This document shows positions 39,701-62,866 of a stretch of 64,000 nucleotides of DNA, in pieces. This DNA is from Mobula hypostoma (taxonomy: Eukaryota): the NCBI RefSeq assembly GCF_963921235.1, contig NC_086097.1:32056001-32120000 (forward strand). The letters are read 5' to 3'. Within the stretch, counting starts at the first letter, position 1. Each line of letters opens with the position of its first letter. Both the position numbers and the translations under genes were made by a program. Below the pieces are notes generated by a model, which saw only the letters and a list, made by a program, of their open reading frames with translations, had not been told where the DNA came from and searched no databases.

Positions 39701-42700
39701 CCAGTTAGCCTGAAATCATTGTTTCATAAGATATTGGAGTCTATTATTAACAATGAGATTTCAGGGTACTTGGAGGCACATGATAAAATAGACCAAAGTC
39801 AGCATGGTTTCCTTAAGGGAAAATCTTGCCTGACAAATCTGTTGGAATTCTTTGAGGTAATAACAAGCAGGATAGACAAAGGAGAATTGGTGGATGTTGA
39901 GTACTTGGATTTTCAGAAGGCCTTTGACAAGGTGCTGCACATGAGGCTGCATAACAAGATTAGAGCCCATGGTATGACAGGAAAGACACTAGCATGGATA
40001 GAAGATTTGCTGACTGGCAGCAGGCAAACAGTGGGAATAGAGGGGACCTTTTCTGGTTGGTTGCCGGTGACTAGTAGTGTTCCACAGGGGTCTATGTTGG
40101 GACTGCTATTTTTGCGTTATATGCCAGTGATTTGAATGACAGAATTGATGGCATTGTGGCCAGGCTTACATACAATACGAAGATAGGTGGAGGGGTAGGT
40201 AGTGTTGAGGAGGCAGTGAGGCTGGAAAAAGACTTACAGATTTGGAGAATGGGCAAAAATGTGGCAGATGGAATATAGTGTAGGGAAGTGTATGGTCATG
40301 TACTTTGATGGGAGGTATAAACACCTAGATTATTTTCTAAACGCGGAGAAAATTCAAAAATCAGAGGTGCTAAGGGACTTTGAAGTCATGTGCAGGATTC
40401 CCTACAGGTTAACTTGCAGGTTGAGACAGTGGTAGGGAAGACAAATATAATGTTAGCATTCATTTCGAGAGGACTAGAAAAACAAACAAGGATGTTATGC
40501 TGAGGCTTTATAAGACATTGGTCAGACCACACTTGGAGTATTGAGAGCAGTTTTGGACCCCTTATCTAAGAAAGGGTGTGCTAGCATTGAAGAGGGTCTA
40601 GAGGAGGTTCACGAGAATAATTCAGGAATAAAAGGGTGGAAGTATGAGGTGTGCTGGTTGTCTTTGGGCCTGTAACTTGCTGGAGTTAAGAGGAATGAGG
40701 GGGAACTAGTGCAGGTAGGAATGGAGAGATCACACATATGAAGGACTAGCTGCAGAGATGGTGTAGGGGACAGGGCTTCAAGTTCTTGGATCATTGGAAC
40801 CTTTTCTGGGGAAGGGGTGACCATACAAGAGGGATGGGTTGCACTTGAACTCGAGGGGAACCAATATCCTAGCCACAAGGTCTGCAGATGCTACTCGGGA
40901 GAGTTTAAACTAGTTTTGCAGGGGGCTGGGAACCTGAGACCTCAGGTCATTAAGGGAAGGATTGGACTGGAAGGAAAGTATTGAAAGGCAAAATTGAAAT
41001 AACAGGTATGGTGAGTCGGATAGTTTGAAGTGTGTCTATTTTAATGCTAGGAGTATTATGGGTAAGGGTGATGAACTTAGAGCATGGATCAGTACATGGA
41101 ACTACAAAGCTGTAGCCATTACTGAAACTTGGTTGAGAGAGGGGCAGGAAAGTGTGATTAATTGTATCCGGTTTTCAAAGTTTTAGAAAAGATAGAGGAA
41201 GAGGTAAGGGGGGGGGTGGGGGGGTGGATAGAGTTGAACTACTAATCAAGGACAATATCACAGCCATACTTGGGGAGACAGAATGGAGGGGTCAGATACT
41301 GAGTCTGCTTGGGTAGAACCCACGGATAGGAAGGGTGCAATCACACTGATGGGATTGTACTACAGACCCCCTAATAGCCACCAGAACATTGTAGGAACAG
41401 ATATGTAATCAGATTAAGGAAACATGTTAAATAATAGGGATGTTGTCGTGGGGAATTTCAACTTCCTTAATATAAACTGGGACCTTCCTAGCGCAAGGAG
41501 TTCAGATGGGGCAGGATTTTTTAAGTGTGTCCAGGAAGGTTTGTTAAATCAATATGTGGATGGTCCATTGAGAGGAGGGGCCGCATTGGACCTGGTGCTG
41601 GGTAGTGAGCCTGGTCAAGTGACTGAACTTTCAGTGGATGAACGGTTAGGGGGCAGTGACTACAACTCTTTAACTTTCAGGCCAGCTATAGACAAGGATA
41701 GGTATGGTTCTTGTGGGAGAACTTTAAATTGCACTAGAGCAAATTATGAGGGCATTAGGCAGAAACTAAGGTGAGTTAATTGGGAACACCTTTTTTCTGG
41801 CAAGTCCACATCAGACATGTGGAGGGTGTTTAAAGATCAATTGCACAGAATACAGGAAAGGTATGGTCCTGTTAGAAGGAAGGACAGGGATGGAAAGATA
41901 AGGGAGCCTTGGACATCCAGAGAGGTAACACTCACAAAACGCTGGAGGAACTCAGCAGGTCAGGCAGCATCTATGGAAAAGAGTACAGTCGACATTTTGG
42001 GCTGAGTTGTCGACTGCACTCTTTTCCATAGATGCTGCCTGGCCTGCTGAGTTTCTCCAGTATTTTGTGTGTGTTGCTCGGATTTCTAGCAACTGCAGAT
42101 TCGTTCATGTTTATGTCCAGACAGGTGGTGAATTTAATCAAGAAGAAAAAGGAAAAGTATGTAAAGCTTCGGAACTCAGGATCAAACGGAGCACGAGGAG
42201 TATAAAGAAGCCAGAAAAGAACTCAAGGTGGAATTAGGAAAGCCAGGAGGGGCCATGTAAAGTCCTTGGCAAGTAGTGTTAAAGACAATCCCAAGGGATT
42301 CTGTACATACATCAAGAATAAAAGAATAACTTGAGAGAGAGTGGGACCATTCAAGGATAAAGGGGGGAACATTTGTTTGGATGCAGAGAATGTGAGTGAG
42401 GTACTTAATGAGTACTTTGCTTCAGTATTTACCAAAGTAAAGGACATGGGAGACCAGGAGATCAGAGCTTAGTGTATAAATACGTTAGGGCATTTGGAGG
42501 TCAATGAGGAGGAAGTGTTGGGTCTCCTAATGAGTATTAAGGTAGATAGGTCCCCAGGGCCTAATGGGATTTACCCCAGGTTATTCAAGGAGGCAAAAGA
42601 CGAGATTGCTGAGCCCATGACCAGAGCAGCGTCTTTGTGTCTTCTCTAGGCACAGGCGAGGTCCTGGAGGACTGACGAGTGGATAATGTTGTTTCTCTAT

Positions 42701-45700
42701 TTAAGAAGGGAACAAGGGAAAATCCTGGGAATTGTAAACCTGTGTGTCTTGCGTCATTTGTAGGGAAATTGCAGGAGAAAAAGCTTTAGGGACAGGATAT
42801 ATCAGCATTTGGAAAACCATAACCTAATTAGGAAAAGCCAGCATGGCTTTGTGCATGGCAGGTCATGTCTTAACAACTTGTTTGAGTTTTTTTGACAAGG
42901 TGAAGAGAAAGGGTAGGCAATGGATATTGTGTACAATGATTTTAGTAAGATGTCTGACAAAGTCCCTCATGGAAGGCTAATCTAGAAGTTTAAGATGCAT
43001 GGGATCTCCAGTGAATTGGCTGTTTGGATTCAGAACTGACTTGCGCATAGGAGACAGCATAGTGGTTGAAGGGACTTGTTCGAGCTGGAAGTCTATAGTT
43101 AGTGGGGTTCCGCAGGGATCTGTGCTAGGACCTCAGCTATTTGTGATGTATATAAATGACCTGGATGAAAATGTAGATTAGTAAGTTTGCAGATGTTGCC
43201 AAGATTGGTGGAGTCGTGGACAGAGTAGAAGAATGGCAAAGAATACAGAGCAATATAGATCAGTTGCAAATATGATCAGAGAAATAGCAGTTGAAGTTTA
43301 ACCCAGATAAACTTGAGGTGCTGCACCTCGGCAGGGAAAGCGCAAGGATAGAGTACGCTGCTCAGGGCAAGGTCCTTAACAGCGCTGCTGAGCAGAGATT
43401 CTGGCTGGATAGGCTTGGGTTGTTTTCTCTGGAGCGTCAGAGGCTGAGGGGAGATCTGATAGAGGTTTACAAGATTAGGAGAGGCAAAGATAGAGTGGAC
43501 AGAGAGTATCTGTTTCCCAGGGTTGAAATGTCTAATACCGGAGGGCATGCATTGAAAGTGAGAGGGTATAGGTTCAAGAGGGATGTGAGGAGTAAGTTTT
43601 TTTTACTCAGAGAGTTGTGGGTGCCTGGAATGTGTTGGCTGGTATGGTGGTAGAGGTAGATTAAGATTAGAGATATTTAAGAGATGTTTGAATAGGTACA
43701 TGGATGTAAGGAAGATGGAGAGATATGGACATGGTGTAGATAGGAGGGATTAGTGTTTGGGTGTTTTTGATTTGCTTTTTTGCTGGCTCAGCACAACATT
43801 GTGGGCTGAATGGCCTGTACCTGTGCTGTACTCTTCTATATTTTCTATGAAACCTATTGGATATTGAAAGGCCTTGACAGAGTGGATGTGGAGAAGATGT
43901 TTCCTATAGTGGGTGAATCTAGGACCAGAAGGCACAACCTCAGAATAGAGGGACGTCCATTTAGAACAGTGATGAGGAGGAATTTGCTTAGTCAGAGGGT
44001 GGTGAATCTGTGGAATTCATTGCCACAGAATGCTGTGGGGGGCAAGTCACTGAGTATATTTACAGTGGAGGTTCAAAGGTTCTTGATTAGTCAGGGCATC
44101 AAAGGTTACGGAGAGAAGGCAGGAGAATGGGGTTGAGGGGGATAGTAAATCAGACATGATGGGATGATGAAGCAGACTCGATGGGCCAAATGGTCTAATT
44201 CTGCTATGTCTTATGGTCTAAATGCCTCTTAAACATAGTGACTGTATTTGATTCCACCAGTTTCTTTTGCACATTAGTTGTTTGTGTCAGTCTCTTAACC
44301 TATGATGTCTAGTTCTAGTCTCATTCAACATCAATGGAAAAAGCCTGCTTGCATTCATCCTATCTATACTCCTCATCATTTTGGATACCTCTATTAAATC
44401 TCCCCTCATTCTCCTACGTCCAGGGAATAAAGTCCTAACCTGGTTCAACCTTTTCCTAAAACTCAGGACCTCAGGTCCTGACAAGATCCTTGCAAATTTT
44501 CTCTGTAAACTTACTTCTAAACATCTAATCCTTGTAAACCCATCCTTCAATCCCTTTAAACCTCATTCCTCACAGCTTATATTCCTCTTGTCTTTGACAT
44601 TCTTCCCATGGGGAAAAAGTATCTGACTGTCTACCCTATCTCTGCCTCTGATAATGTTATACACCTGTCAGGTGTCCCCTCACTCCAGGAGAAACAAGCC
44701 CAGCTGGGAGGACCTCAGCGGACTGTGCAGAGAAACCGTCGACATTCCGAGTGGGCACTCCAGGTCACGACTGGGAAAGGGGTGGGAAGATCGAGGAGGA
44801 AGTCGGGATCAGATCAGGTCAGATTCATTTATTTATCACATGTACATCAGAAACATACAGTGAATGCGTCGTATGCGTTAACAACCAAGGCACCCAAGGA
44901 TGTGCTGGGGGCAGCCCACATGTCATCCCACACGCCCACAATGTTTATCAGAATGACACAAACAACAATAACACAACAACAGCAACAAATCTATAAATTT
45001 GCCAACAACACAACTATTGTTGGCAGAGTTTCAGGTGGTGATGGGAGGGCGTACAGGAGCGAAATCAATCAGCTGGTTGAGTGGTGTCGCTGCAACAACC
45101 TTGCACTCAGTGTCAGTAAGACCAAAGAATTGAATGTGGGCTTCAGAAAGGTTAAGACGAGGAAACACACACCAGTCCTCGCGGAAGGATCAGAAATGGA
45201 GAGAGTGAACAATTTCAAGCTTCTGGGTGTCAACATCACTGAGGATCTATCTGGGGCCCAACATATCAATGCAGTTACAAAAAAGAACATAATAACATAA
45301 GAAATAGGAGCAGGAATAGGCCATCTGACCCATTGGGCCTGCTCCGTCATTCAATAAGATCATGGCTGATCTGGCCATGGACTCATCTCCACCTATCTGC
45401 CTTTTCCCCATAACCCTACTATGCAAAAATCTATCCAACCTTGTGTTAAATATATTTACTGAGGTAGCCTCCACTGCTCCATTGGGCTGAGAATTCCCCA
45501 GGTTCACCACTCTCTGGGAAACGCAGTTCCTCCTCATCTCCATCCAAATCTACTCTCCCGAATCTTGAGGCTATGTCCCCTATTCCTAGTCTCACCAATC
45601 AGTGGAAATAACTTTCCTGCCTCTATCTTATCTATCCTTTACATAATTTTATATGTTTCTATAAGATCTCCTCTCATTCTTCTGAATTCCAGCAAGTATA

Positions 45701-54700: not shown

Positions 54701-57700
54701 AGCAGTTCGCACTGGACACAAATAAGTATGGAGCAATTATAGTGTTTTCTGGAAGGTATCTTTTTGTAAATATTGGCAGTTTTCACTATTTTCACTAATT
54801 TTTGCAAGTTTGATTTTTGAGGAACCTAATGAACACCCTTGTACTAACGTACTAAGTGACTCCAGCCATCTTCCCTTTGGTGGTAACCTGCGTATCTAAT
54901 AAACACCCACCACGGGCACCCAACCATCACCCACCACTCTTACCTGCAGCCTACTCTGCTCCCTCTGAAGGTCCTCAATGGATCGAGGCAAGGCCCTCTT
55001 CAGATCTCTCCTTATCTCTTGGAACGCAGGCCCCAGGACAGCTATCTCGCGGTCACATCTGGTACACATCTGCCCACATCAGCACAGATGGATGGATGGG
55101 TTAGAACACCATTACTCAGATACTGAGGCCCACTCAGGAGGGTAAGCAAGATCCCGGGGGAAGGGTGGGGGAGAGTGTTGGAGATCTGGGTTGGGACTTA
55201 CTCCCTCGCCTGATGTGCTCAGGTTTATGAGTAATAGTACACCATAGCATAGAAACAGGCCATTCAGCCCATCTAGTCTGTGCCATTTGGCAGGGTTTGG
55301 TGGAGTTCTGGGAGGTACGTCAGTGGGTGTGAGAGGGCTCACAGATCGACACACTCGCCAAGATACCCATCGCCATTCAGTGGTACCAGAGGCTATGGCA
55401 AGCATCCGGCAAAGGAAGGCAAAGGGGTGAAGGCAGTATTGAGCACACGAGCCTTCATCAGTCAGGGTGCTGAGTATCGGAGTTGGGACGTCATGTTACA
55501 TCTGATCAAGAGGTACAGTATTGGTGACACCAAACTCAGAGTACTACATGCAGTTCCAGTCACCCAGCTATGGGAAGGGTGTCATCAATAAGACCATAGG
55601 AACAGAATTAGGCCATTCAGCCCATCGGGTCTGCTCTGCCATTCAATCAAGGCTGATTTATTATCTCTCTCAATCCCATTCACCTGCCTTCCCTCCATGA
55701 CCTCTGACACCCTTACTAATAAAGAATCTATCAGCTTTCACTTTAAATACACCCAATGACTTGGCCTCCACAACCGTCTGTGGTAATGAATTCCACAGAT
55801 TCAGCACCCTCTGGCTAAAGAATTTCCTCATCTCTGTTCTAAAGGATATTCCTCTATTCTGAGGCTGATGACCAGAATTTCCTAGCCTCACCATCTACTG
55901 GAAACATTCTCTCCACACCCTCTCTACCAAAACCCTACAATATTTAAAATGTTTCAATGAGATCCCCCCCTCATTCTTCTAAACTCAGCGAGTATAGGCC
56001 CAGAACCACCAAACTCTCCTCGCATATTAACCCTTTCATTCTCAGAATCACTCTCACGAACCTGCAGGGACCTCTCCGGCACCAGCACATCTTTTCTTAG
56101 ATTAGGGGCCCAAAACTGCTTACATTACTCCAAGTGTGGTCTGACCAATGCCTTATAGAGCCTTAGCTCTATACATCCTTTCTCTTATATCTTTTCTCTT
56201 ATATTGTAGTCTACTTGAAATGAATGCTAACATTGCATTTGCCTTCCTTACCACCGATTCAACCTACAAGCTAACCTTCAGGGAATTCTGCATGAGGACT
56301 TCCAAGTCCCTTTGCACCTCTAATTTCTGAATTTTCTCTCCATTTAGGAAACAGTTTACACCTTTATTCCTTCTACCAAAGTGCATGACTATACATTTCC
56401 CTACACTACATTTCATCTTTCTCTTCTTTGCCAATTCTCCTAATCTTAGACCTTCTTCAGACCCCCTCCTTCCTCAACACTAACTGCCCCTCCACCTACC
56501 TTCATATCATCTGCAAACTTGGCCACAAATCCATCAAATTTGTCATCCAAATCATCCATACATAACATAAAAAGAAGTGGTCCCAGCACTGATCCCTGCA
56601 GGACATCACGAGTCTCCGGCAGCCAACCAGAAAAGGCCCCTTTTATTCCCACTTTCTGCCTCCTGTCTGTCAGCCAATTTTCTATCCATGCTAGAATCTT
56701 TCCTGGAATACCATGAATTCTCATCTTGCTTAGCAAGCTCATGTGCATCACCTTATCCAAGGCCTTCTGAAGATCCAAATAAACAACAGGCACTGACTCT
56801 CTTTGTCTATCCTGCTTGTTATTTCCTCAAAGAATTCCAGCAAATCTGTTAGGCAAGATTTCCCCTTAAGGAAACATGCTGATTTTGGCCTATTTTGTCA
56901 TGTGCCTCCAAGTATCCCAACTCCAATATCATCCTTACTACTGGACTCCAACATCTTCCTAACCACTGAAGTCAGACTAACTGGCCAATAATTTCCTTTT
57001 TTTGCCTCCTTCCCATCTTACAAAGAGTGGAGTGATATTTGCAATTTCCCAGTTCTCCCGAACCATTCCAGAATCTCGTGATTTCTGAGGGCCTGAGGGC
57101 GAGGCGGACAGGTGGAAGGTGGTGGAATGTGAGTACGATTGGGGGACACTAGCCTCTCACCTACCTCCTGGACGTTGGCCAGCTGTGCAGCATTGTCCTT
57201 CACCTGCGCACTGGCCCACTTCCAGCCCTCCTGCAGCTGATCCAGCTGCTCCCGGAGCACCGACTGCGTTTGGGTGTTGGCCTCTGACAGTAGCCATCTG
57301 CCCAGCTCCACCGTCTGCAGGTAGCAGCCTTTGTGGCGATTTAGAATACGCTCCTCGTGCTGGGGGGGGGGAGATGAGAGGAGGGGGATAAACAGAATGG
57401 TCAACAGTCGAACACTGAAGGCAGGGGAATGTCAACAGTCAATGTTCAATGGGGTGAAGACTATCAATGGTCACCACCCAACAGGGAGAAGGCTGCCAAT
57501 GGTCACCATCCAATGGGGAGAAGGCTATCAATGGTCACCACCCAATGGGGACAGTGGGTACCAGCCAAAATGGAGAGTGGCAGTAGTGGGTACCACCAAT
57601 AAAGATAGAGGCTGTCATACGTGACTGTTCAGTGAGGATAGATGGTCAATGTCCAATGGGGAAAGGGGATACCAATGGTCTCCGGACAATATGGAAAGAA

Positions 57701-60410
57701 GTCAACAATATCATCATCCAATAGGGAGAAGGCTATCAATAGTCACTAGCCAATAGAAAGAGAGACATCAAGAATCACCATCTAATAGAGAGAGGCTGTT
57801 AAGAGTTATACTCCAATAGAGAGAAGGATGTTAATTGGTACTGTCCAATGATGAGAGAGGTGCCAATGGATACTATCCAATAGGGATTGAGAATGTCAGA
57901 GATGACCATCCAATGGGAGAGAAGCTGCCAATGGAGAGAATCACAGGGCAGTAAAGAGGCCATTCTTCCTATCAGGCCTGTCTCAGCCCTTTTAAAAGTG
58001 ATTCTCTCAGCTCAAACCAGTCCCTTTGTGGATCCCATTCCCCCACCCAACCATCATCCCAGGTACCCTGTTTCCTTTTGAGGGCAACTACTAAATCAGT
58101 TTCTTCCTCCTGACACAGAGGACTGCTGGGGAAGGGTTGCTCCCCTCCCCATCTCCCTATGCCCTTCCCATTCTTCCCCTCCTCATCTTTCCACATCCCA
58201 CCCTTTCCCTCCCCTATCCCTCACACCTCTCCCCTCCTGCCCTTCCCTGTTCTGATTCAGGACTCTAGCCAGGGGTGGGGGGGGGTGGGCATGGGCTTGT
58301 GGGTGGGGCGTGGATGAGCGGCCAACAGAAACGTGACCTCGATCTTTACCTGTAGTTCATCCTGAAGCGCCCAGGTCTCTGCCAGCGTGTAGTGGCCCAA
58401 CCTGTCCATCGCACGGAGGCAGGGCCCGACCCCTGCCAAAAGCCGCTGCAGCCCAGCCCTGGATGCACGGTACCGGCACCACCAGTCGGTCCGTACACGG
58501 ATCTCGGACCATTGGCACTTGGAGGGACCACTGCAAGGCAAGGGAGAGGGTCAGCCTTAACTGGCCACACTGGCGAGGAGGGGAGGGGGACAAAGAAAGA
58601 AAGAGCAGGCAGGGTACACAGGGTGCTGGGAGAGACAGTGGGAGATGTGGGGAGTGGTGGGGGGAGACATGGGGTCTGCGAGCAAGGGCATGGAGTAGGC
58701 AGCACAGAGATAGGTGGGGGTTAGGGAGATGTGGGAGAAACAGGATAGGGAATGCAGGGGAGGGGGGGGTACCAGGCAGACAAGGGAGGAGAGAGGGAGA
58801 CAAGAAAGGGGGGGGAGGAGTTGAGAGGCAACGTGGGACAGAGGGGGTTAGGGAGACAAGGGGTGGGATAGGCAGGGTTTTAGGGAGATGCAGGGAGTGG
58901 GAGATGAGCTGAAGGAGGTTAGGGAGATGGTGAGGTGTGGGAGACAGTATTAGAAAGATGAAGAAGTGGGGAGATATCTGTTAGGGAGACATGATGTTAG
59001 GGATTTGCAGAGTGGGGCAATTTGGCTTGCATGCTCCTGAGGGCTGTAGAGGGGTGGTTGCCACGTTGACCGGCCCATCACCTGTGCGGACCCTCTGCAG
59101 GCGAGGGTTGTGACTTCTCGCTGTCTGTCCCTTCCGCCATCTGTCGGACCAGCCCCACCTCCGTCTGCAGACCCTGTGTCAGGGGCAGAGTAAGAGGGTG
59201 AGCAGTTGTTTCCACTCAACCGCGCCCCCCCATCCATTCCCTCCCTCCTCAATGCCCCCTCCCCAAACCCTGAACCACCTTGCCCGACTCCCCCCCACCT
59301 CCAATGACCACCACAGCTACCAACCCCACATTGCTGTAGCACCTCTCACCTTCCCTCCCTCACGCTAGGTACCAAGCTGTGCAGCTGTCACAGGGGCAGG
59401 GAGAGGGGCACCTCACCTACCCTAGGTCTCCGGCACCAAGGGGTTCTTCCCCACTGGAGGGGTGGGCAGTCACAGCCCTGCTGCCCCACCAGAACAGGGA
59501 GTGTAGAGAACGTCTCCCGCTGGACCTTGAGGGATTGAAAGTGAGTAGTGGGGTAGTCCACCCTTCTTTACTGCACAGGCGTTCCTACAGCTTATGGCTC
59601 GGGAAGAGGGAAATCGGGGGCAATTTTAATACATTTAGTCACACAGGCATAGAGTAAAACAATATGGAAACAGGTCCTTTGGCCCAGCGTAGATTACCCA
59701 TACCCAGGACTATGGGTCCCTACACCATCTCCTGCTCGCAGGCCTAAGCACAGGGAGTGGCAGTGGCCTCCCACCCCAGGACGGGGCTCACTGACAGCCA
59801 CTGGCCTTGGGCTTAGTTCTTACTGTTAGAGTGATTTTTGGGTTGAGGACACATACATTTAGCAACTGACTTTGGCTACCAGTCTTCACGTCTGAATATG
59901 TATTGTGGATTCAATTTGGAGTGCAGCTCTGAGTAATGGATTCCTAAAAGCAGTGAATCCCAGACCAGACAATACTGATTAAACTTCATTTAGATGTCTG
60001 TGGTGTGGGTGCGAATCAGGAGGTGTGAAAGCATTGTCTATACATTGTAAATATGGAATTGTCCTTTGATGTTTGGGACGGAAAATATCCAGCCCCATCG
60101 AAACCGTCTCCAGATGATGCCTGCTGCACCTTGTTTAACAAATAAAGAAGCTGCCTTGTATCTACCAGTAATTTTCTCTGGTGACTTCATTCACGCAACA
60201 ACACTTACCTCGTGGGATTCCAGATGCTCGAGGTTGCCAGGCAATCCGGCCTCCCCCTCTCCCCCAGCTGCTGCATCGTGCTCGGGTCTCAGCTGGTGGG
60301 CTTCCAGCCACTCAAGTTTGCCGGGAAGGCCGACCACCAGCTTCTCCTCCAGCTCCCGCCAAAGATGTCTCCAGTACTCGTGGTCGGGCTCCCCCGCTCC
60401 CTGCGACCAG
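6588..60410 (-). CDS. SYNE2: Nesprin-2 (SYNE2-like), partial multi-exon CDS: 18 exons, about 1001 aa of C-terminal spectrin repeats plus LEWD region
   Basis: All 18 exons have AG/GT boundaries and matching phases with no internal stop. Peptides EITLNTNKIDQLIV, WLTEMDLQLTNVEHFS and ETPVSVDSIPLEWDHTVDVGGSSS match remembered nesprin-2 better than nesprin-1. Confidence 0.9.
6820..7195 (-). mobile_element. tRNA-derived SINE
   Basis: Minus-strand head with A box (TAGTGTAGCGG), B-box-like GGTTCGTGTCC and AATAAA tail; relatives near 13920-14140, 37760-37870, 44815-44985, 50310-50590. Confidence 0.65.
7903..8029 (-). CDS. SYNE2: SYNE2-like exon Q (127 nt): AKLLSEGSGSTEDVQRV...SDQPMA(G)
   Basis: CTCTAG acceptor, CAG|GTGAGG donor, phase 0 to 1; xKLL start as in nesprins. 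Confidence 0.85.
8105..8560. repeat. 50-bp minisatellite (GAAGCCCCCTCTGCACCGTCCCATCACACACTTCCAGGGGTAGACAGAGT), about 9 copies
   Basis: Units start at 8111, 8161, 8211, 8261, 8311, 8361 and then degenerate. Confidence 0.95.
8979..13430 (+). mobile_element. Full-length CR1 LINE: CpG-rich 5' UTR, ORF1 (Zn finger, leucine zipper, SGNH esterase; 9353-10276), disrupted ORF2 (about 10572-13369)
   Basis: CSIC...HTCRTC, VIGDSIVRG, VHVGTND, DGLHLN; APE motifs (ETWL, YRPP, GSDH) and RT motifs; several stops and frameshifts. Splits an older minus-strand CR1 (8830-8978 and 13431-13690). Confidence 0.95.
14441..14559 (-). CDS. SYNE2: SYNE2-like exon P (119 nt): GDLAQASTVWHPGTS...SAHRQDY
   Basis: TTGCAG acceptor, GTAAGA donor, phase 1 to 0 as required. 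Confidence 0.82.
15420..15663 (-). CDS. SYNE2: SYNE2-like exon O (244 nt) with LEWD kinesin-1 light-chain binding motif
   Basis: CTCCAG acceptor, GTGAGT donor; SGRETPVSVDSIPLEWDHTVDVGGSSSQDEDE. Confidence 0.95.
15700..16420. repeat. C-rich low-complexity tandem array (CCACCCACTGACTCCCC / CACTCAGACTCCCCAC variants)
   Basis: Directly visible; G-runs on the transcribed strand. Confidence 0.9.
16885..17592 (+). mobile_element. Probable RTE-related non-autonomous element, interrupted by a CR1 3' tail (about 17048-17175, minus)
   Basis: GGAGAAGGAAAACTCTGATCTCAAAC resembles RTE 5' regions as I recall them; no ORF. Confidence 0.45.
17778..17972 (-). CDS. SYNE2: SYNE2-like exon N (195 nt): AFQHEITLNTNKIDQLIVSGEQLIQK...VFGRVARFHQRLVAVQP
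   Basis: CTCAG acceptor, GTAAGG donor; very close to remembered nesprin-2 peptide. Confidence 0.94.
18054..18405 (+). mobile_element. SINE-like insertion with AGAAGAAGGCAATGG motif and (AACG)n tail, nested in another SINE
   Basis: Host SINE sequence (atcacatgtacatc...atatacagtgaaatgcatt) is split; short ATTG duplication. Confidence 0.55.
19187..19954 (-). mobile_element. Solo LTR (Gypsy-type) containing 30-bp tandem repeats, inserted in a CR1 fragment
   Basis: TGT...ACA termini, flanks GTATC/GTATA, minus-strand CATAAAA near 19845 and AATAAA near 19260; CR1 sequence resumes on both sides. Confidence 0.75.
21471..22525 (-). mobile_element. Young CR1 copy inserted in Gypsy gag
   Basis: Near-identical to 4358-5405; same tail repeat. 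Confidence 0.95.
22751..23927 (-). mobile_element. Non-autonomous hAT (Charlie/Buster-type) DNA transposon inserted in Gypsy gag
   Basis: TIRs CAGGGGTCCCCAA / TTGGGGACCGCTG, perfect 8-bp TSD CACTAAGG, transposase C-terminal remnant (FWIKV...KTKLRNRLD...QAQGSH); carries a CR1 3' fragment at about 23170-23365. Confidence 0.95.
25562..26010 (+). mobile_element. CR1 3' fragment inserted in Gypsy pol
   Basis: LGLYSLERRRMRGDL...FFTQRVV; tail CTATGGTAA repeated. Confidence 0.9.
28221..28358 (-). CDS. SYNE2: SYNE2-like exon M (138 nt): HFISQREEFECSRKAIEVWLTEMDLQLTNVEHFSQSDIVDKVRQLN
   Basis: TTCCAG acceptor, GTAAGC donor; not in the ORF track. Confidence 0.94.
28795..28977 (-). CDS. SYNE2: SYNE2-like exon L (183 nt): TFQRQAHERLTQLELINKQFRRLCRENR...ILRRLK
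   Basis: CAG acceptor, AAG|GTAACT donor; LTQLELINKQ motif. Confidence 0.94.
28969..29385. repeat. 100-bp minisatellite, about 4 copies, overlapping the exon L acceptor
   Basis: GGAACG(A/T)CTG recurs at 28971, 29071, 29171, 29271 and degenerately near 29372. Confidence 0.95.
29655..29805 (-). CDS. SYNE2: SYNE2-like exon K (151 nt): IEETWRMWQKILDDYSHFEEWL...AKDELKKYE
   Basis: CAG acceptor, GAG|GTGAGA donor; conserved nesprin peptide. Confidence 0.94.
30459..30655 (-). CDS. SYNE2: SYNE2-like exon J (197 nt): ELQRDIDHHAAGVESVL...LDRRWRNICALSLQRRM
   Basis: CAG acceptor, GTAGGC donor; LDRRWRNIC motif. Confidence 0.93.
31552..31714 (-). CDS. SYNE2: SYNE2-like exon I (163 nt): VSTLMERR...LRSWLAHIEAELSKPLVYTVCNDQEIERKLAEQQ
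   Basis: CAG acceptor, CAG|GTGTGT donor; strong nesprin motif WLAHIE.ELSKP.VY. Confidence 0.93.
31805..32176 (+). mobile_element. CR1 3' fragment
   Basis: LGLFSLERR motif, TTCTATG tail. Confidence 0.8.
32930..34050 (+). mobile_element. Rex1/Babar-type LINE RT fragment
   Basis: GPDG...ANQLAGVYKDIFSLSL...VPTCFK and YVRLLFIDYSSAFNTI motifs; related pieces at 44988-45290 plus 46523-47065, 53825-54085, 61705-62125. Confidence 0.8.
34980..35388 (-). mobile_element. Penelope-type non-autonomous element
   Basis: Reverse complement resembles 53310-53725; degenerate hammerhead-like motif near 35040-35070. Confidence 0.6.
35390..36590. repeat. CA-rich microsatellite fields flanking a GC/CpG-rich unique segment (35945-36380)
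   Basis: Directly visible (CA)n and CACAGA runs. Confidence 0.8.
36667..37690 (-). mobile_element. Young CR1 copy, same family as 4358 and 21471
   Basis: Near-identical sequence; RT C-terminal ORF 36739-37584. Confidence 0.95.
38020..40705 (+). mobile_element. Older CR1 with near-complete but degenerate ORF2
   Basis: NAHSIQNK, ITESW, YRP, SQHGF, DFQKAFDKV, VPQGS motifs with many stops. Confidence 0.9.
40735..43842 (+). mobile_element. Older CR1 (end of ORF1 esterase plus degenerate ORF2)
   Basis: DGLHLN-coding segment, APE and RT motifs, 3' UTR; interrupted at 41927-42112. Confidence 0.88.
41927..42112. mobile_element. Palindromic Penelope-type insertion with about 65-bp inverted arms
   Basis: Arms CACAAAACGCTGGAGGAACTCAGCAGG...CAGTCGACA and TGTCGACTG...CCTGCTGAGTTTCTCCAGTATTTTGTG; flanks TCCAGAGAGGT / TCCAGACAGGT. 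Confidence 0.75.
45288..46522 (-). mobile_element. CR1 RT fragment inserted into a Rex1/Babar fragment
   Basis: FQKAFDKVPH, GVPQGS, KFADD; Rex sequence resumes at 46523. Confidence 0.88.
47722..47948. repeat. About 32-bp degenerate minisatellite (CCCTCCCTCAGTACCACCCTTCCCACAGTGTGA)
   Basis: Directly visible. Confidence 0.85.
47956..48625 (-). mobile_element. Tx1/L1-clade LINE 3' end
   Basis: LLLGLAKMAIH and NRFLSRF peptides typical of Tx1 ORF2 C-termini; AATAAA and A-rich tail. Confidence 0.7.
48679..48845 (-). CDS. SYNE2: SYNE2-like exon H (167 nt): DCVEEIARWQ...ARWEHLNQLIDS(R)
   Basis: CAG acceptor, CAG|GTGAGG donor, phase 0 to 2. Confidence 0.88.
50590..51236 (+). mobile_element. CR1-group (Crack/L2-like) LINE 3' end
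   Basis: YKAQVRSVMEYSPLAWM and SWNSLP peptides; AATAAA-containing tail. Confidence 0.7.
51477..51635 (-). CDS. SYNE2: SYNE2-like exon G (159 nt): GFARGQDINRGLEQWNLFKTRSEELGAWL...IEETIEKLQK
   Basis: CAG acceptor, AAG|GTAAGG donor; resembles the nesprin IEEMIEKL motif. Confidence 0.88.
51995..52900 (-). mobile_element. CR1 3' fragment hosting a SINE
   Basis: LPGLEDLSYRERLTRLGL peptide. Confidence 0.8.
52575..52814 (+). mobile_element. tRNA-derived SINE with perfect 12-bp TSD TAACATCCCAGC
   Basis: A box TGGCCAAGTGG, B-box-like GAGTTTGAGCC; TSD at 52563-52574 and 52815-52826. Confidence 0.85.
52965..53120 (-). CDS. SYNE2: SYNE2-like exon F (156 nt): ELEQTQGAWSSRLAELSS...QLENQWEQLRLA
   Basis: CAG acceptor, GTGAGT donor, 52 codons. 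Confidence 0.85.
53310..53725 (+). mobile_element. Penelope-type non-autonomous element
   Basis: Pyrimidine-rich body then degenerate hammerhead-like motif and CCTGACCTGCTGAGTT end. Confidence 0.6.
54944..55069 (-). CDS. SYNE2: SYNE2-like exon E (126 nt): MCTRCDREIAVLGPAFQEIRRDLKRALPRSIEDLQREQSRLQ
   Basis: CAG acceptor, CAG|GTAAGA donor, 42 codons; not in the ORF track. Confidence 0.85.
55588..57092 (-). mobile_element. Degenerate CR1 RT fragment
   Basis: YLDLQKALDKV, LQGSVLGP, KFADD. Confidence 0.88.
57165..57359 (-). CDS. SYNE2: SYNE2-like exon D (195 nt): HEERILNRHKGCYLQTVELGRWLL...LANVQE
   Basis: Poly-C CAG acceptor, GAG|GTAGGT donor, 65 codons with spectrin-repeat pattern. Confidence 0.85.
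57395..57937. repeat. Degenerate minisatellite (CAATGGTCACCATCCAATGGGGAGAAGGCT-like)
   Basis: Repeated CAATGG/CAATAG and GGGAGAAGGCT motifs. Confidence 0.8.
58350..58530 (-). CDS. SYNE2: SYNE2-like exon C (181 nt): GPSKCQWSEIRVRTDWWCRY...LQDELQ
   Basis: TTGCAG acceptor, CAG|GTAAAG donor, phase 2 to 0. Confidence 0.75.
59082..59173 (-). CDS. SYNE2: SYNE2-like exon B (92 nt): GLQTEVGLVRQMAEGTDSEKSQPSPAEGPH
   Basis: CAG acceptor, CAG|GTGATG donor; phase 0 to 2 exactly bridges exons A and C. Confidence 0.7.
59824..60203 (+). mobile_element. Solo LTR (380 bp) with 5-bp TSD CTTAC
   Basis: TGTT...AACA termini, AATAAA near 60141, CTTAC at 59819-59823 and 60204-60208. Confidence 0.75.
60209..60410 (-). 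CDS. SYNE2: SYNE2-like exon A (202 nt): WSQGAGEPDHEYWRHLWRELEEKLVV...NLEHLESHE
   Basis: TTTTCCAG acceptor, AG|GTAAGT donor, open frame ending in phase 0; peptide is divergent. Confidence 0.7.
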
Positions 60411-62866
60411 CTGGAAAACAGAAAGGATCAGTGTGGAGCAGCTGGTGGGGCATTCCCTGTAACCGGCATTTGAGAATGCCAGGCCGCCTGTACAGCACAC
60501 CTCCTTCACCATCTTCTCCGCCTTCAGTGAACTCTGCACCTCATCCCAAGAACCCTGCTACTGAGATTGAGGGGGTCTGCAGTCGATTTGACAATCTTGT
60601 GCCCACAAGATGAGCAGGCTCGATGGGCTAAACGGCTCAAATTCTGCTCATATGTCATATAGATTCAGCACCTCAGGAGGCAACCTACACAAAATGCTGG
60701 AGAAACTCAGCAGGTCAGGCAGCACCTATGGAGATGAATAAATATGCTCCTGAACTGGTACAGATAACTTTACTCACCAGAACACTGAACTGAATCTATA
60801 TGACCTACAGTCTCTTTCAAGGGCTCTTTACAACTCTTGTTTTTGGTATTATTTTTATTTATACTTTGTCTTCTTTTGCTCATTGGTTGTTTGATGGTCT
60901 TTGTTTAAATACAAAGACGATAGTCCGTTACAGCACAGTACAGACCCTTTGGCTAACAATGTTGTGCCATCCTTTTAAACTACTCCAACATCAATCTAAC
61001 CCCTCCCTCCCATGTAGACATCCATTTCCTTTCATTCATGTTCCTATCCAAGGGTCTCTTAAATGTCCCTAATGCCTCTACCACCACTCCTGGCACCACA
61101 TTCTAAGCATCCATTACTCTGTAAAAAAACCTACCTCTGTCATCCACCCCATACTTTCTTACAATCACCTTCAAATTATGCTCCCTCGTGTTAGCTCTTT
61201 CTGTCCTGGGAAAAACTCTCGACCTTCCCACTCTACCTATGCCTACTTTGATCTTGAACACCTCTATCAAGTCATCTCTTATTCTAATTCACTCCAAAGA
61301 GAAAAGCCCTAGCTCACTCATAAGACATGCTCTCTAGTCCAGGCAGCATCCTGGTAAATCTGCTCTGCACCCTCTCTGAAGTTTCTATATCATTCCTACA
61401 ATGAGGCCACCAGAAATGAACAAGATACTATGGTCTAATCAAGGATTTTATAGAGCTGCAACATTACCTCACAGCTTTTGAATTTAAACCCTGACTTATG
61501 AAGGCCAGCACATCTTACACCTTTTTAACAACCTGATCAACTTGGATGGCAACTTTGAGAGATCTATGGACGTGGATCCCAAGATCCCCCTATTTTCCCA
61601 CACTGCCAAGAGTCCTGCTGTTTACCCTGAATTCTGCCTTCAAATTCAACCTTCTAAAGTGATGGTCTGGTAAATTATGGCACAGATTTTGAGCTGAAAA
61701 CCCACAAAAGATCGTGAATTCAGCCGAGTACATCACAGATAAAACCCTCCCAACCACTGAGCACATCTACATGAAGGTTGTCGTAGAAAAGCAGCATCCA
61801 TCTTCAAAGATTCTCACCACCTAGGCCATGCTCTTTTCTCACTGCTGCCATCAGCTAGAAGGTACTAATGCTGTAGGGCTCACACCACCAGGTATGAGAA
61901 CAGTTACTGCCCCTCAACCATCAGGCTCTTGAGCAAAAGGAGATAACTATACTTATTTAAGGACTGTTATCTTGTTGTTTCATGCTGGCTATGTATTTAC
62001 ACAGTTTGTTGTCCATTGTTTACAGTTACTGTTCTATAGAGTGGCTAAGTATGCCTGCAGAAAAAGATTCTCAGGGTTGTATGTGGTGATATGCATGTAC
62101 TCTAATAATAAATTTTGCTTTGAACCACTTCACACTTCTCTGGGCTGAACTTCATCTGCCACTTCTCAGCCCAACCCTGCATCCTGTCAACGATTATTTG
62201 CAACCAACAACAACCCTCCACACTTCACAACTCCACCAATCTTCCTGTCTTCGGCAAGCTTACTAACCCACCCTTCCACTTCCTCATCTATTCTTATTTA
62301 CATAGTTTGTCTTCTTTCGCACAATGGTTGTTTGTTAGTCTTCGTATATGTAAAGTTTTTTTGCAACATTCGATTCTATTTCTTTTTTTTCCTGTAAATG
62401 CCTGCAAGAAAATGGATCTCAAGGTGACAGTAAGTAGGAAGTTACTGTTGAAAGTAAGTAGGAAACCCTGTCGGAGATGAGGACAGGAGCAGACTGCAAG
62501 TTCCTGATTTCATGATACTCTCGGCCCAAAACATCTAGTCCTCTCTACGGATGCAGCCTGACCTGCTGAGTTCCTTCAGCATTTTGTGTGTATTGGCATA
62601 AGACCATAAATCACAGGAGCAGAATTAGGCCATTTGGCTCACCATTCCAACATGGCTGATATATTATCCTTCTTATCCCCATTCTCCTGTCTTTTCCCTA
62701 TAACCTTTGACACGCTTACTAAACAAGAACCTATCAACCTCCACTTTAAATATACTCAATGGCTTGGCCTTCATAGCCATCCTTAGCAATGAATTCCACA
62801 GATTCGCCACCATCTGGCTAAAGAATTTCCTTCTCAACTCTATTCTAAATGGATGTCCTTCTATTC

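Follow-up and report, generated by a model that had tools for sequence, protein, structure and literature searches.

A probably tolerated antisense solo long terminal repeat whose target-site duplication covers a splice donor of a nesprin-2-like gene in Mobula hypostoma

How can a long terminal repeat (LTR) come to lie as near to an exon as it possibly can, and persist there? The question is raised by a 64,000-nt stretch of the Mobula hypostoma genome (assembly GCF_963921235.1, contig NC_086097.1, positions 32,056,001 to 32,120,000, forward strand), called the window here. In it, a segment that starts with TGTT and ends with AACA lies between two perfect copies of CTTAC, directly after an exon (exon A) of a nesprin-2-like gene on the minus strand. 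On the strand of the gene, these copies read GTAAG, and the exon-side copy forms positions +1 to +5 of the exon A donor (Table 1). A preliminary description, made from the letters of the window, had reported the element, its flanking repeats and their coincidence with the donor; all of its coordinates hold, and the exon boundary is real by match to orthologous proteins. The segment is a solo LTR of an LTR retroelement. It is very probably a tolerated, and likely a near-neutral, antisense insertion, whose harmlessness would come from the geometry of integration.

Identity of the insertion and of the donor

A TGTT to AACA pattern with a perfect 5-bp flanking repeat occurred at two further places in the window, so the pattern alone is not diagnostic and evidence from a repeat family is needed. 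Both of these stretches (41441-42714 and 55950-56567) were unrelated to the LTR by BLAST and probably arose by chance.

When the window LTR was compared with the genome of its species (3.48 Gb in 200 contigs), 2,988 first-look candidates came up, and most of the 40 candidates scored matched end to end (74-84% identity with gaps); a comparison that started from a typical copy produced 3,271 candidates (86-89% identity). The check for further copies that the preliminary description had suggested was answered by about 3,000 candidate copies with shared termini. After removal of two duplicate loci and of the window copy itself, 52 distinct other copies were compared; 33 of them started with TGTT and 30 ended with AACA. 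The 5-bp flanking repeat was perfect in 8 copies and had at most one mismatch in 24 (random 5-mers, 1.7%). Copies L004 and L021 were among the few that seemed to have 4-bp duplications (perfect at 4 bp in 3 of the 52), and L026 and L041 lay about 7 kb apart in opposite orientation.

The LTR 3' end followed by TGG had 64 pattern matches in the genome. An 18-mer resembling a primer-binding site (PBS; at most 4 mismatches) followed the LTR 3' end at 17 of the 30 loci fetched, which were picked for the following TGG, and presumably matches tRNA-Leu. A polypurine tract preceded the LTR in L057, L066 and L083. Copies L067 and L066, which are on one strand and separated by 8.7 kb, formed a pair; their flanks, GGCTG and GGATG, are a near-matching duplication, and their LTRs were 17% different. 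Broken Gag-like frames with zinc knuckles lay downstream of PBS-bearing copies, and L064 carried reverse transcriptase (RT) motifs. Shared ends, 5-bp duplications and the PBS, polypurine tract, Gag and RT of the paralogues identify the segment as a solo LTR.

The position of the PBS, past the AACA end in the paralogues, sets the sense of the LTR on the plus strand, antisense to the host gene. This orientation keeps the LTR poly(A) signal off the host transcript, and the gene strand of the window copy contained neither AATAAA nor ATTAAA. There was no internal element sequence at the locus, with exon A on one side and intron on the other. Relative to a typical copy (420-427 bp), the window copy had two deletions, one of 22 nt near 60027 and one of about 24 nt near 60098. 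A clean-up after insertion by means of these two deletions was considered and rejected: no donor, acceptor or poly(A) motif of the paralogues had been removed (1 motif in 90 segments).

Table 1. Coordinates of the insertion and of the adjoining exons in the window
Feature	Positions	Strand	Remarks
Solo LTR	59824..60203	+	380 bp; old high-copy retrovirus-like family; identified by genome copies and shared ends
Exon-side copy of the target-site duplication	60204..60208	-	GTAAG, donor +1 to +5, reading GAG/GTAAGTGT (slash, exon end); same junction in orthologous protein models
Distal copy of the duplication	59819..59823	-	ACA/GTAAGAAC, similar to a weak donor
LTR poly(A) signal (AATAAA)	60141..60146	+	Opposite strand to the host transcript; sense AATAAA in 40 of 52 other copies
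Exon A, nesprin-2-like gene	60209..60400	-	192 nt (64 codons), begins and ends in phase 0; XP_072895555.1 has the same residue at 61 of 64 positions
Exon B, next exon	59082..59173	-	25 of 30 residues identical to XP_072895555.1, directly after exon A

A profile search with a nearby exon led to a nesprin-2-like protein of Hemitrygon akajei (4,779 residues, XP_072895555.1). Residues 3469-4493 of this protein matched 19 successive minus-strand stretches from 60547 to 6588 of the window, with identity of about 65-80% near the LTR and rising to 87-95% further 3'; residues after 4493 had no match within the window. Intron A-B is 1,035 nt long now and 650 nt long without the insertion. The exon junction, LESHE/GLQ, was present without insert in all four Hemitrygon RefSeq isoform models and was co-linear in two of three Pristis isoforms; neither the third Pristis isoform nor two shark proteins contained a match to the search motif. 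By this junction in the orthologous isoform models, the donor at 60209 is a conserved exon end. Run X9, the best guess at RNA, gave depth on none of the four exons and only on repeats and two short intron pieces, and is no evidence either way. Exon A also contains two similar peptide stretches, PGKLEWLEAH and PGNLEHLESH, which may be an old internal duplication.

Retroviral integration at a 5-bp staggered cut duplicates the target bases and deletes none. At this locus, a retrovirus-like element would have entered intron A-B in antisense orientation, with the staggered cut across donor positions +1 to +5, and the full element would later have recombined to a solo LTR. As integration duplicates the target bases and removes none, the exon followed by GTAAG would have been kept intact, and only +6 onward would have changed. 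Position +6 is bound to be T, because the LTR starts with TG on either strand, and the distal copy is bound to follow CA. The T at +6 can be read in the sequence, and is predicted to have made the donor slightly stronger. The distal GTAAG, which follows the CA end of the LTR and has no exon-side AG, is predicted to be outcompeted by the proximal site. With an intact donor and the poly(A) signal off the transcript, the allele would have been spliced normally, would have been near neutral and would have persisted in the lineage; its sharing with a relative is observed (see below).

Donor strength and the spare donor

The pre-insertion donor, as reconstructed from the duplication, would have been GAG/GTAAGAAC. 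Predicted against the motif of the U1 5' end, U1 pairing was -12.6 kcal/mol for the present donor GAG/GTAAGTGT, -9.6 kcal/mol for the reconstructed donor and -4.5 kcal/mol for the distal site ACA/GTAAGAAC, 385 nt downstream on the minus strand (exon end at 60209). A rough frequency-based weight matrix gave the same ranking (11.8, 10.3 and 5.7, respectively). The 17 other donors of the gene, taken as the best GT near each alignment end, ranged from -4.6 to -11.6 kcal/mol (median -9.4), and the present exon A donor was the strongest of the 18 scored.

The change at +6 from an inferred A to T, as first proposed in the preliminary description, is borne out with this predicted gain in pairing from -9.6 to -12.6 kcal/mol. 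The same description held that the duplication had rescued the donor and slightly improved it. The predicted improvement stands, and the term 'rescue' is an overstatement: no base of the host is lost on integration, and the copy beside the exon is the original donor, unmoved. The old donor would already have been of median strength for the gene, and improvement was not needed.

That the stronger donor mattered, with T at +6 and extra U1 pairing at +7 and +8 offsetting a cost to splicing and being needed for survival of the allele, is unlikely. It would fit the present donor being top of the 18 scored, and also the depletion normally seen for LTRs this near exons (available part of PMC3088655), but the reconstructed old donor was already at the gene median, and the gain was forced by the terminal bases of the LTR and is thus no sign of selection.

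Use of the distal donor is seriously doubtful. Exon A would then be extended across the LTR, or a cassette exon would be closed within the antisense LTR, and the outcome would be a decayed or truncated, and maybe regulated, nesprin transcript. The distal copy is still a perfect GTAAG, the antisense LTR offers 17 AG dinucleotides as candidate acceptors, of which three reach 0.65 in pyrimidine share, and transposable elements near exons are more often found in chimeric transcripts, according to passages of PMC3088655. On the other side, the distal site pairs as poorly as the poorest of the gene's scored donors, and without selection a 5-mer would still be perfect in 71% of cases. Only 2 of the 17 acceptors would give an open, frame-keeping cassette exon, and both have poor pyrimidine tracts (0.45 and 0.35). 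Direct extension by 385 nt shifts the frame and meets a stop after five codons (VSVVA). The exonisation of the LTR through this second donor that the preliminary description had envisaged is not supported, given the weak pairing, the frame shift, the early stop and the absence of an insert from all four stingray isoform models.

Target preference and affinity of the repeat family

If the genome has 150,000-250,000 donors, as is assumed here, the 3,000 copies of this LTR family alone are expected to give 0.13-0.22 exact matches to the donor register, and the other LTR families of the genome add to this expectation. The 18-nt LTR 3' end had 360 exact matches in the genome. GT stood at duplication positions 1-2 after 45 of these 360 intact ends (2.3-2.5 times the background). 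In the orientation of the window copy (NNNAC, AC at positions 4-5), the count was 25 of 360 (1.3-1.4 times the background, not significant). The lower denominator, 326, is 360 minus a rough 34 PBS-flanked ends, and the pattern list has 36. The excess of GT starts was thus larger than the mirror-image excess of AC.

It is very unlikely that the family targets splice donors. The excess of GT at positions 1-2 and a second copy with a GTAAG duplication (L013) would point that way, but the orientation of the window copy had no significant excess, donor-like 5-mer duplications numbered 2 of 360 with the window included (1.14 expected), and L013 lies among repeats, with stops in all three upstream frames. 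The family has a mild tilt to targets that start with GT, and no sign of donor targeting.

Gag of the paralogues was nearest to retroviral Gag clusters (0.90-0.92). Two paralogue RT fragments had murine leukemia virus RT as their best match (E 6e-4 and 3e-3), with foamy virus RT next, and no Ty3 RT was among the 13 and 30 sequences listed in these two comparisons. Pfam on the paralogue frames gave zinc knuckles only, below the cut-off. Word-indexed protein searches with exon A, Gag and an RT piece gave nothing at E 0.001, which is weak evidence. The Gag and RT fragments weakly suggest that the family is an endogenous retrovirus (ERV); its Leu-type PBS and 5-bp duplication presumably resemble those of class III elements. 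The retrovirus-like family of copies L056-L085 is unclassified, and many of its Gag copies are broken; gag ran straight into RT in L064. LINE-like sequence followed soon after the PBS in L067, L074 and L080.

Practically no credence is left for a chance pattern, or for a DNA element whose ends form a short inverted repeat, as the nature of the segment: the bare pattern does recur twice in the window, but the inverted match extends to the 4 terminal bases only, and the PBS, polypurine tract, Gag and RT of the paralogues, together with the pair L067 and L066 at 8.7 kb, refute it.

Age, sharing with relatives and meaning

The window copy differed from the other copies by 13.2% (Kimura two-parameter distance 0.148), the same as the other copies among themselves, which makes it an ordinary member of an old burst. 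Divergence was about 7% per lineage (0.074 substitutions per site), which corresponds to 74-148 Myr if the rate is taken as 1e-9 to 5e-10, and to 336 Myr at 2.2e-10 (a rate from the accessible section of PMC4422223); absolute dating is unreliable.

DNA contigs of three relatives (organisms C, E and F) were 5.6-7.9% different from the window. One contig of organism F, at 59999-60413, spans LTR, duplication and exon A with 2 gap letters, and a second contig reaches 34 bases into the other end of the LTR. The insertion is present in organism F, and with only 2 gap letters in its contig, both deletions of the window copy are common to F. Contigs of organisms C and E reach 26 and 28 bases into the LTR (31 bases were taken as bridging), and the insertion is probably in these two as well.

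Elsewhere in the gene, exon D (57165-57359) was fast-evolving: among the differences listed, changed and silent codons were at least 7 and 5 versus run X16, and at least 5 and 3 versus run X20. The next introns contained a degenerate tandem array with a CCATTGG core (about 57440-57920) and a long purine-skewed low-complexity tract (about 58560-58980), both also covered by contigs of the relatives.

Several points weigh against a near-neutral antisense insertion made harmless by integration geometry. A full-length provirus six bases from the exon would have to be tolerated until recombination, and full-length LTR elements are depleted near mammalian exons, as far as the available text of PMC3088655 goes. 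The junction evidence comes from predicted orthologue models, not from RNA of this species, and is silent on the presence of the LTR in Hemitrygon. No empty site was among the 15 joints listed for DNA of organisms C, E and F. The rank of the present donor, strongest of those scored, leaves room for selection on the donor.

Near the exons of human and mouse, LTRs are depleted, and the survivors are mostly short elements in antisense orientation at the donor side (PMC3088655, in the excerpt available). The window copy is likewise short, antisense and donor-side, but it lies at the minimum possible distance and its duplication covers the core of the donor, a register that the available excerpt of that paper does not treat. 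Duplication of a splice signal by insertion at AGGT is an old idea for intron gain (PMC3443670, partial text), and solo LTRs can form introns (PMC12130899, partial text). Such insertions and introners, solo-LTR introners included, are alike in that the duplication copies a splice signal and the insertion is tolerated. In the accessible parts of both papers, they create a new intron within an exon and use both ends, whereas the LTR in the window entered an intron that was already there, gave rise to no new one and left a donor to spare. An introner was rejected: of the 1,035 nt that make up intron A-B, the element takes up 385, and 645 nt separate its distal end from the exon B acceptor. In cartilaginous fish, ERVs have been described as CmiERV lineages I (snakehead-retrovirus-like) and II and III (epsilon-like) in the available part of PMC4422223; these too are old retrovirus-like LTR elements in a chondrichthyan genome. 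Open-licence literature, with subscription journals and supplements outside its scope, gave no paper whose title or abstract opening deals with an LTR at the +1 to +5 donor register, and nothing relevant to SYNE2 with an ERV or an intron was among the matches listed.

The insertion is a neat example of known rules, in which the protein is unchanged and no new mechanism is shown. It is a long shot that the +1 to +5 register of donors is a self-neutralising landing site for TG...CA elements with 5-bp duplications, each of which would keep the donor, set +6 to T and leave a weak second donor, and where a tilt to GT starts lifts such insertions above chance. They would then form a sharp spike in the depleted zone near exons, and at this locus a nesprin-2 transcript that is regulated, decayed or KASH-less could arise from the spare donor. 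A testable genome-wide prediction is an excess of LTRs at the +1 to +5 donor register relative to neighbouring registers. The insertion can also serve as a presence/absence marker for the phylogeny of rays. Read as a tolerated antisense solo LTR, the locus would illustrate how the geometry of integration allows an LTR to persist at the minimum distance from an exon.

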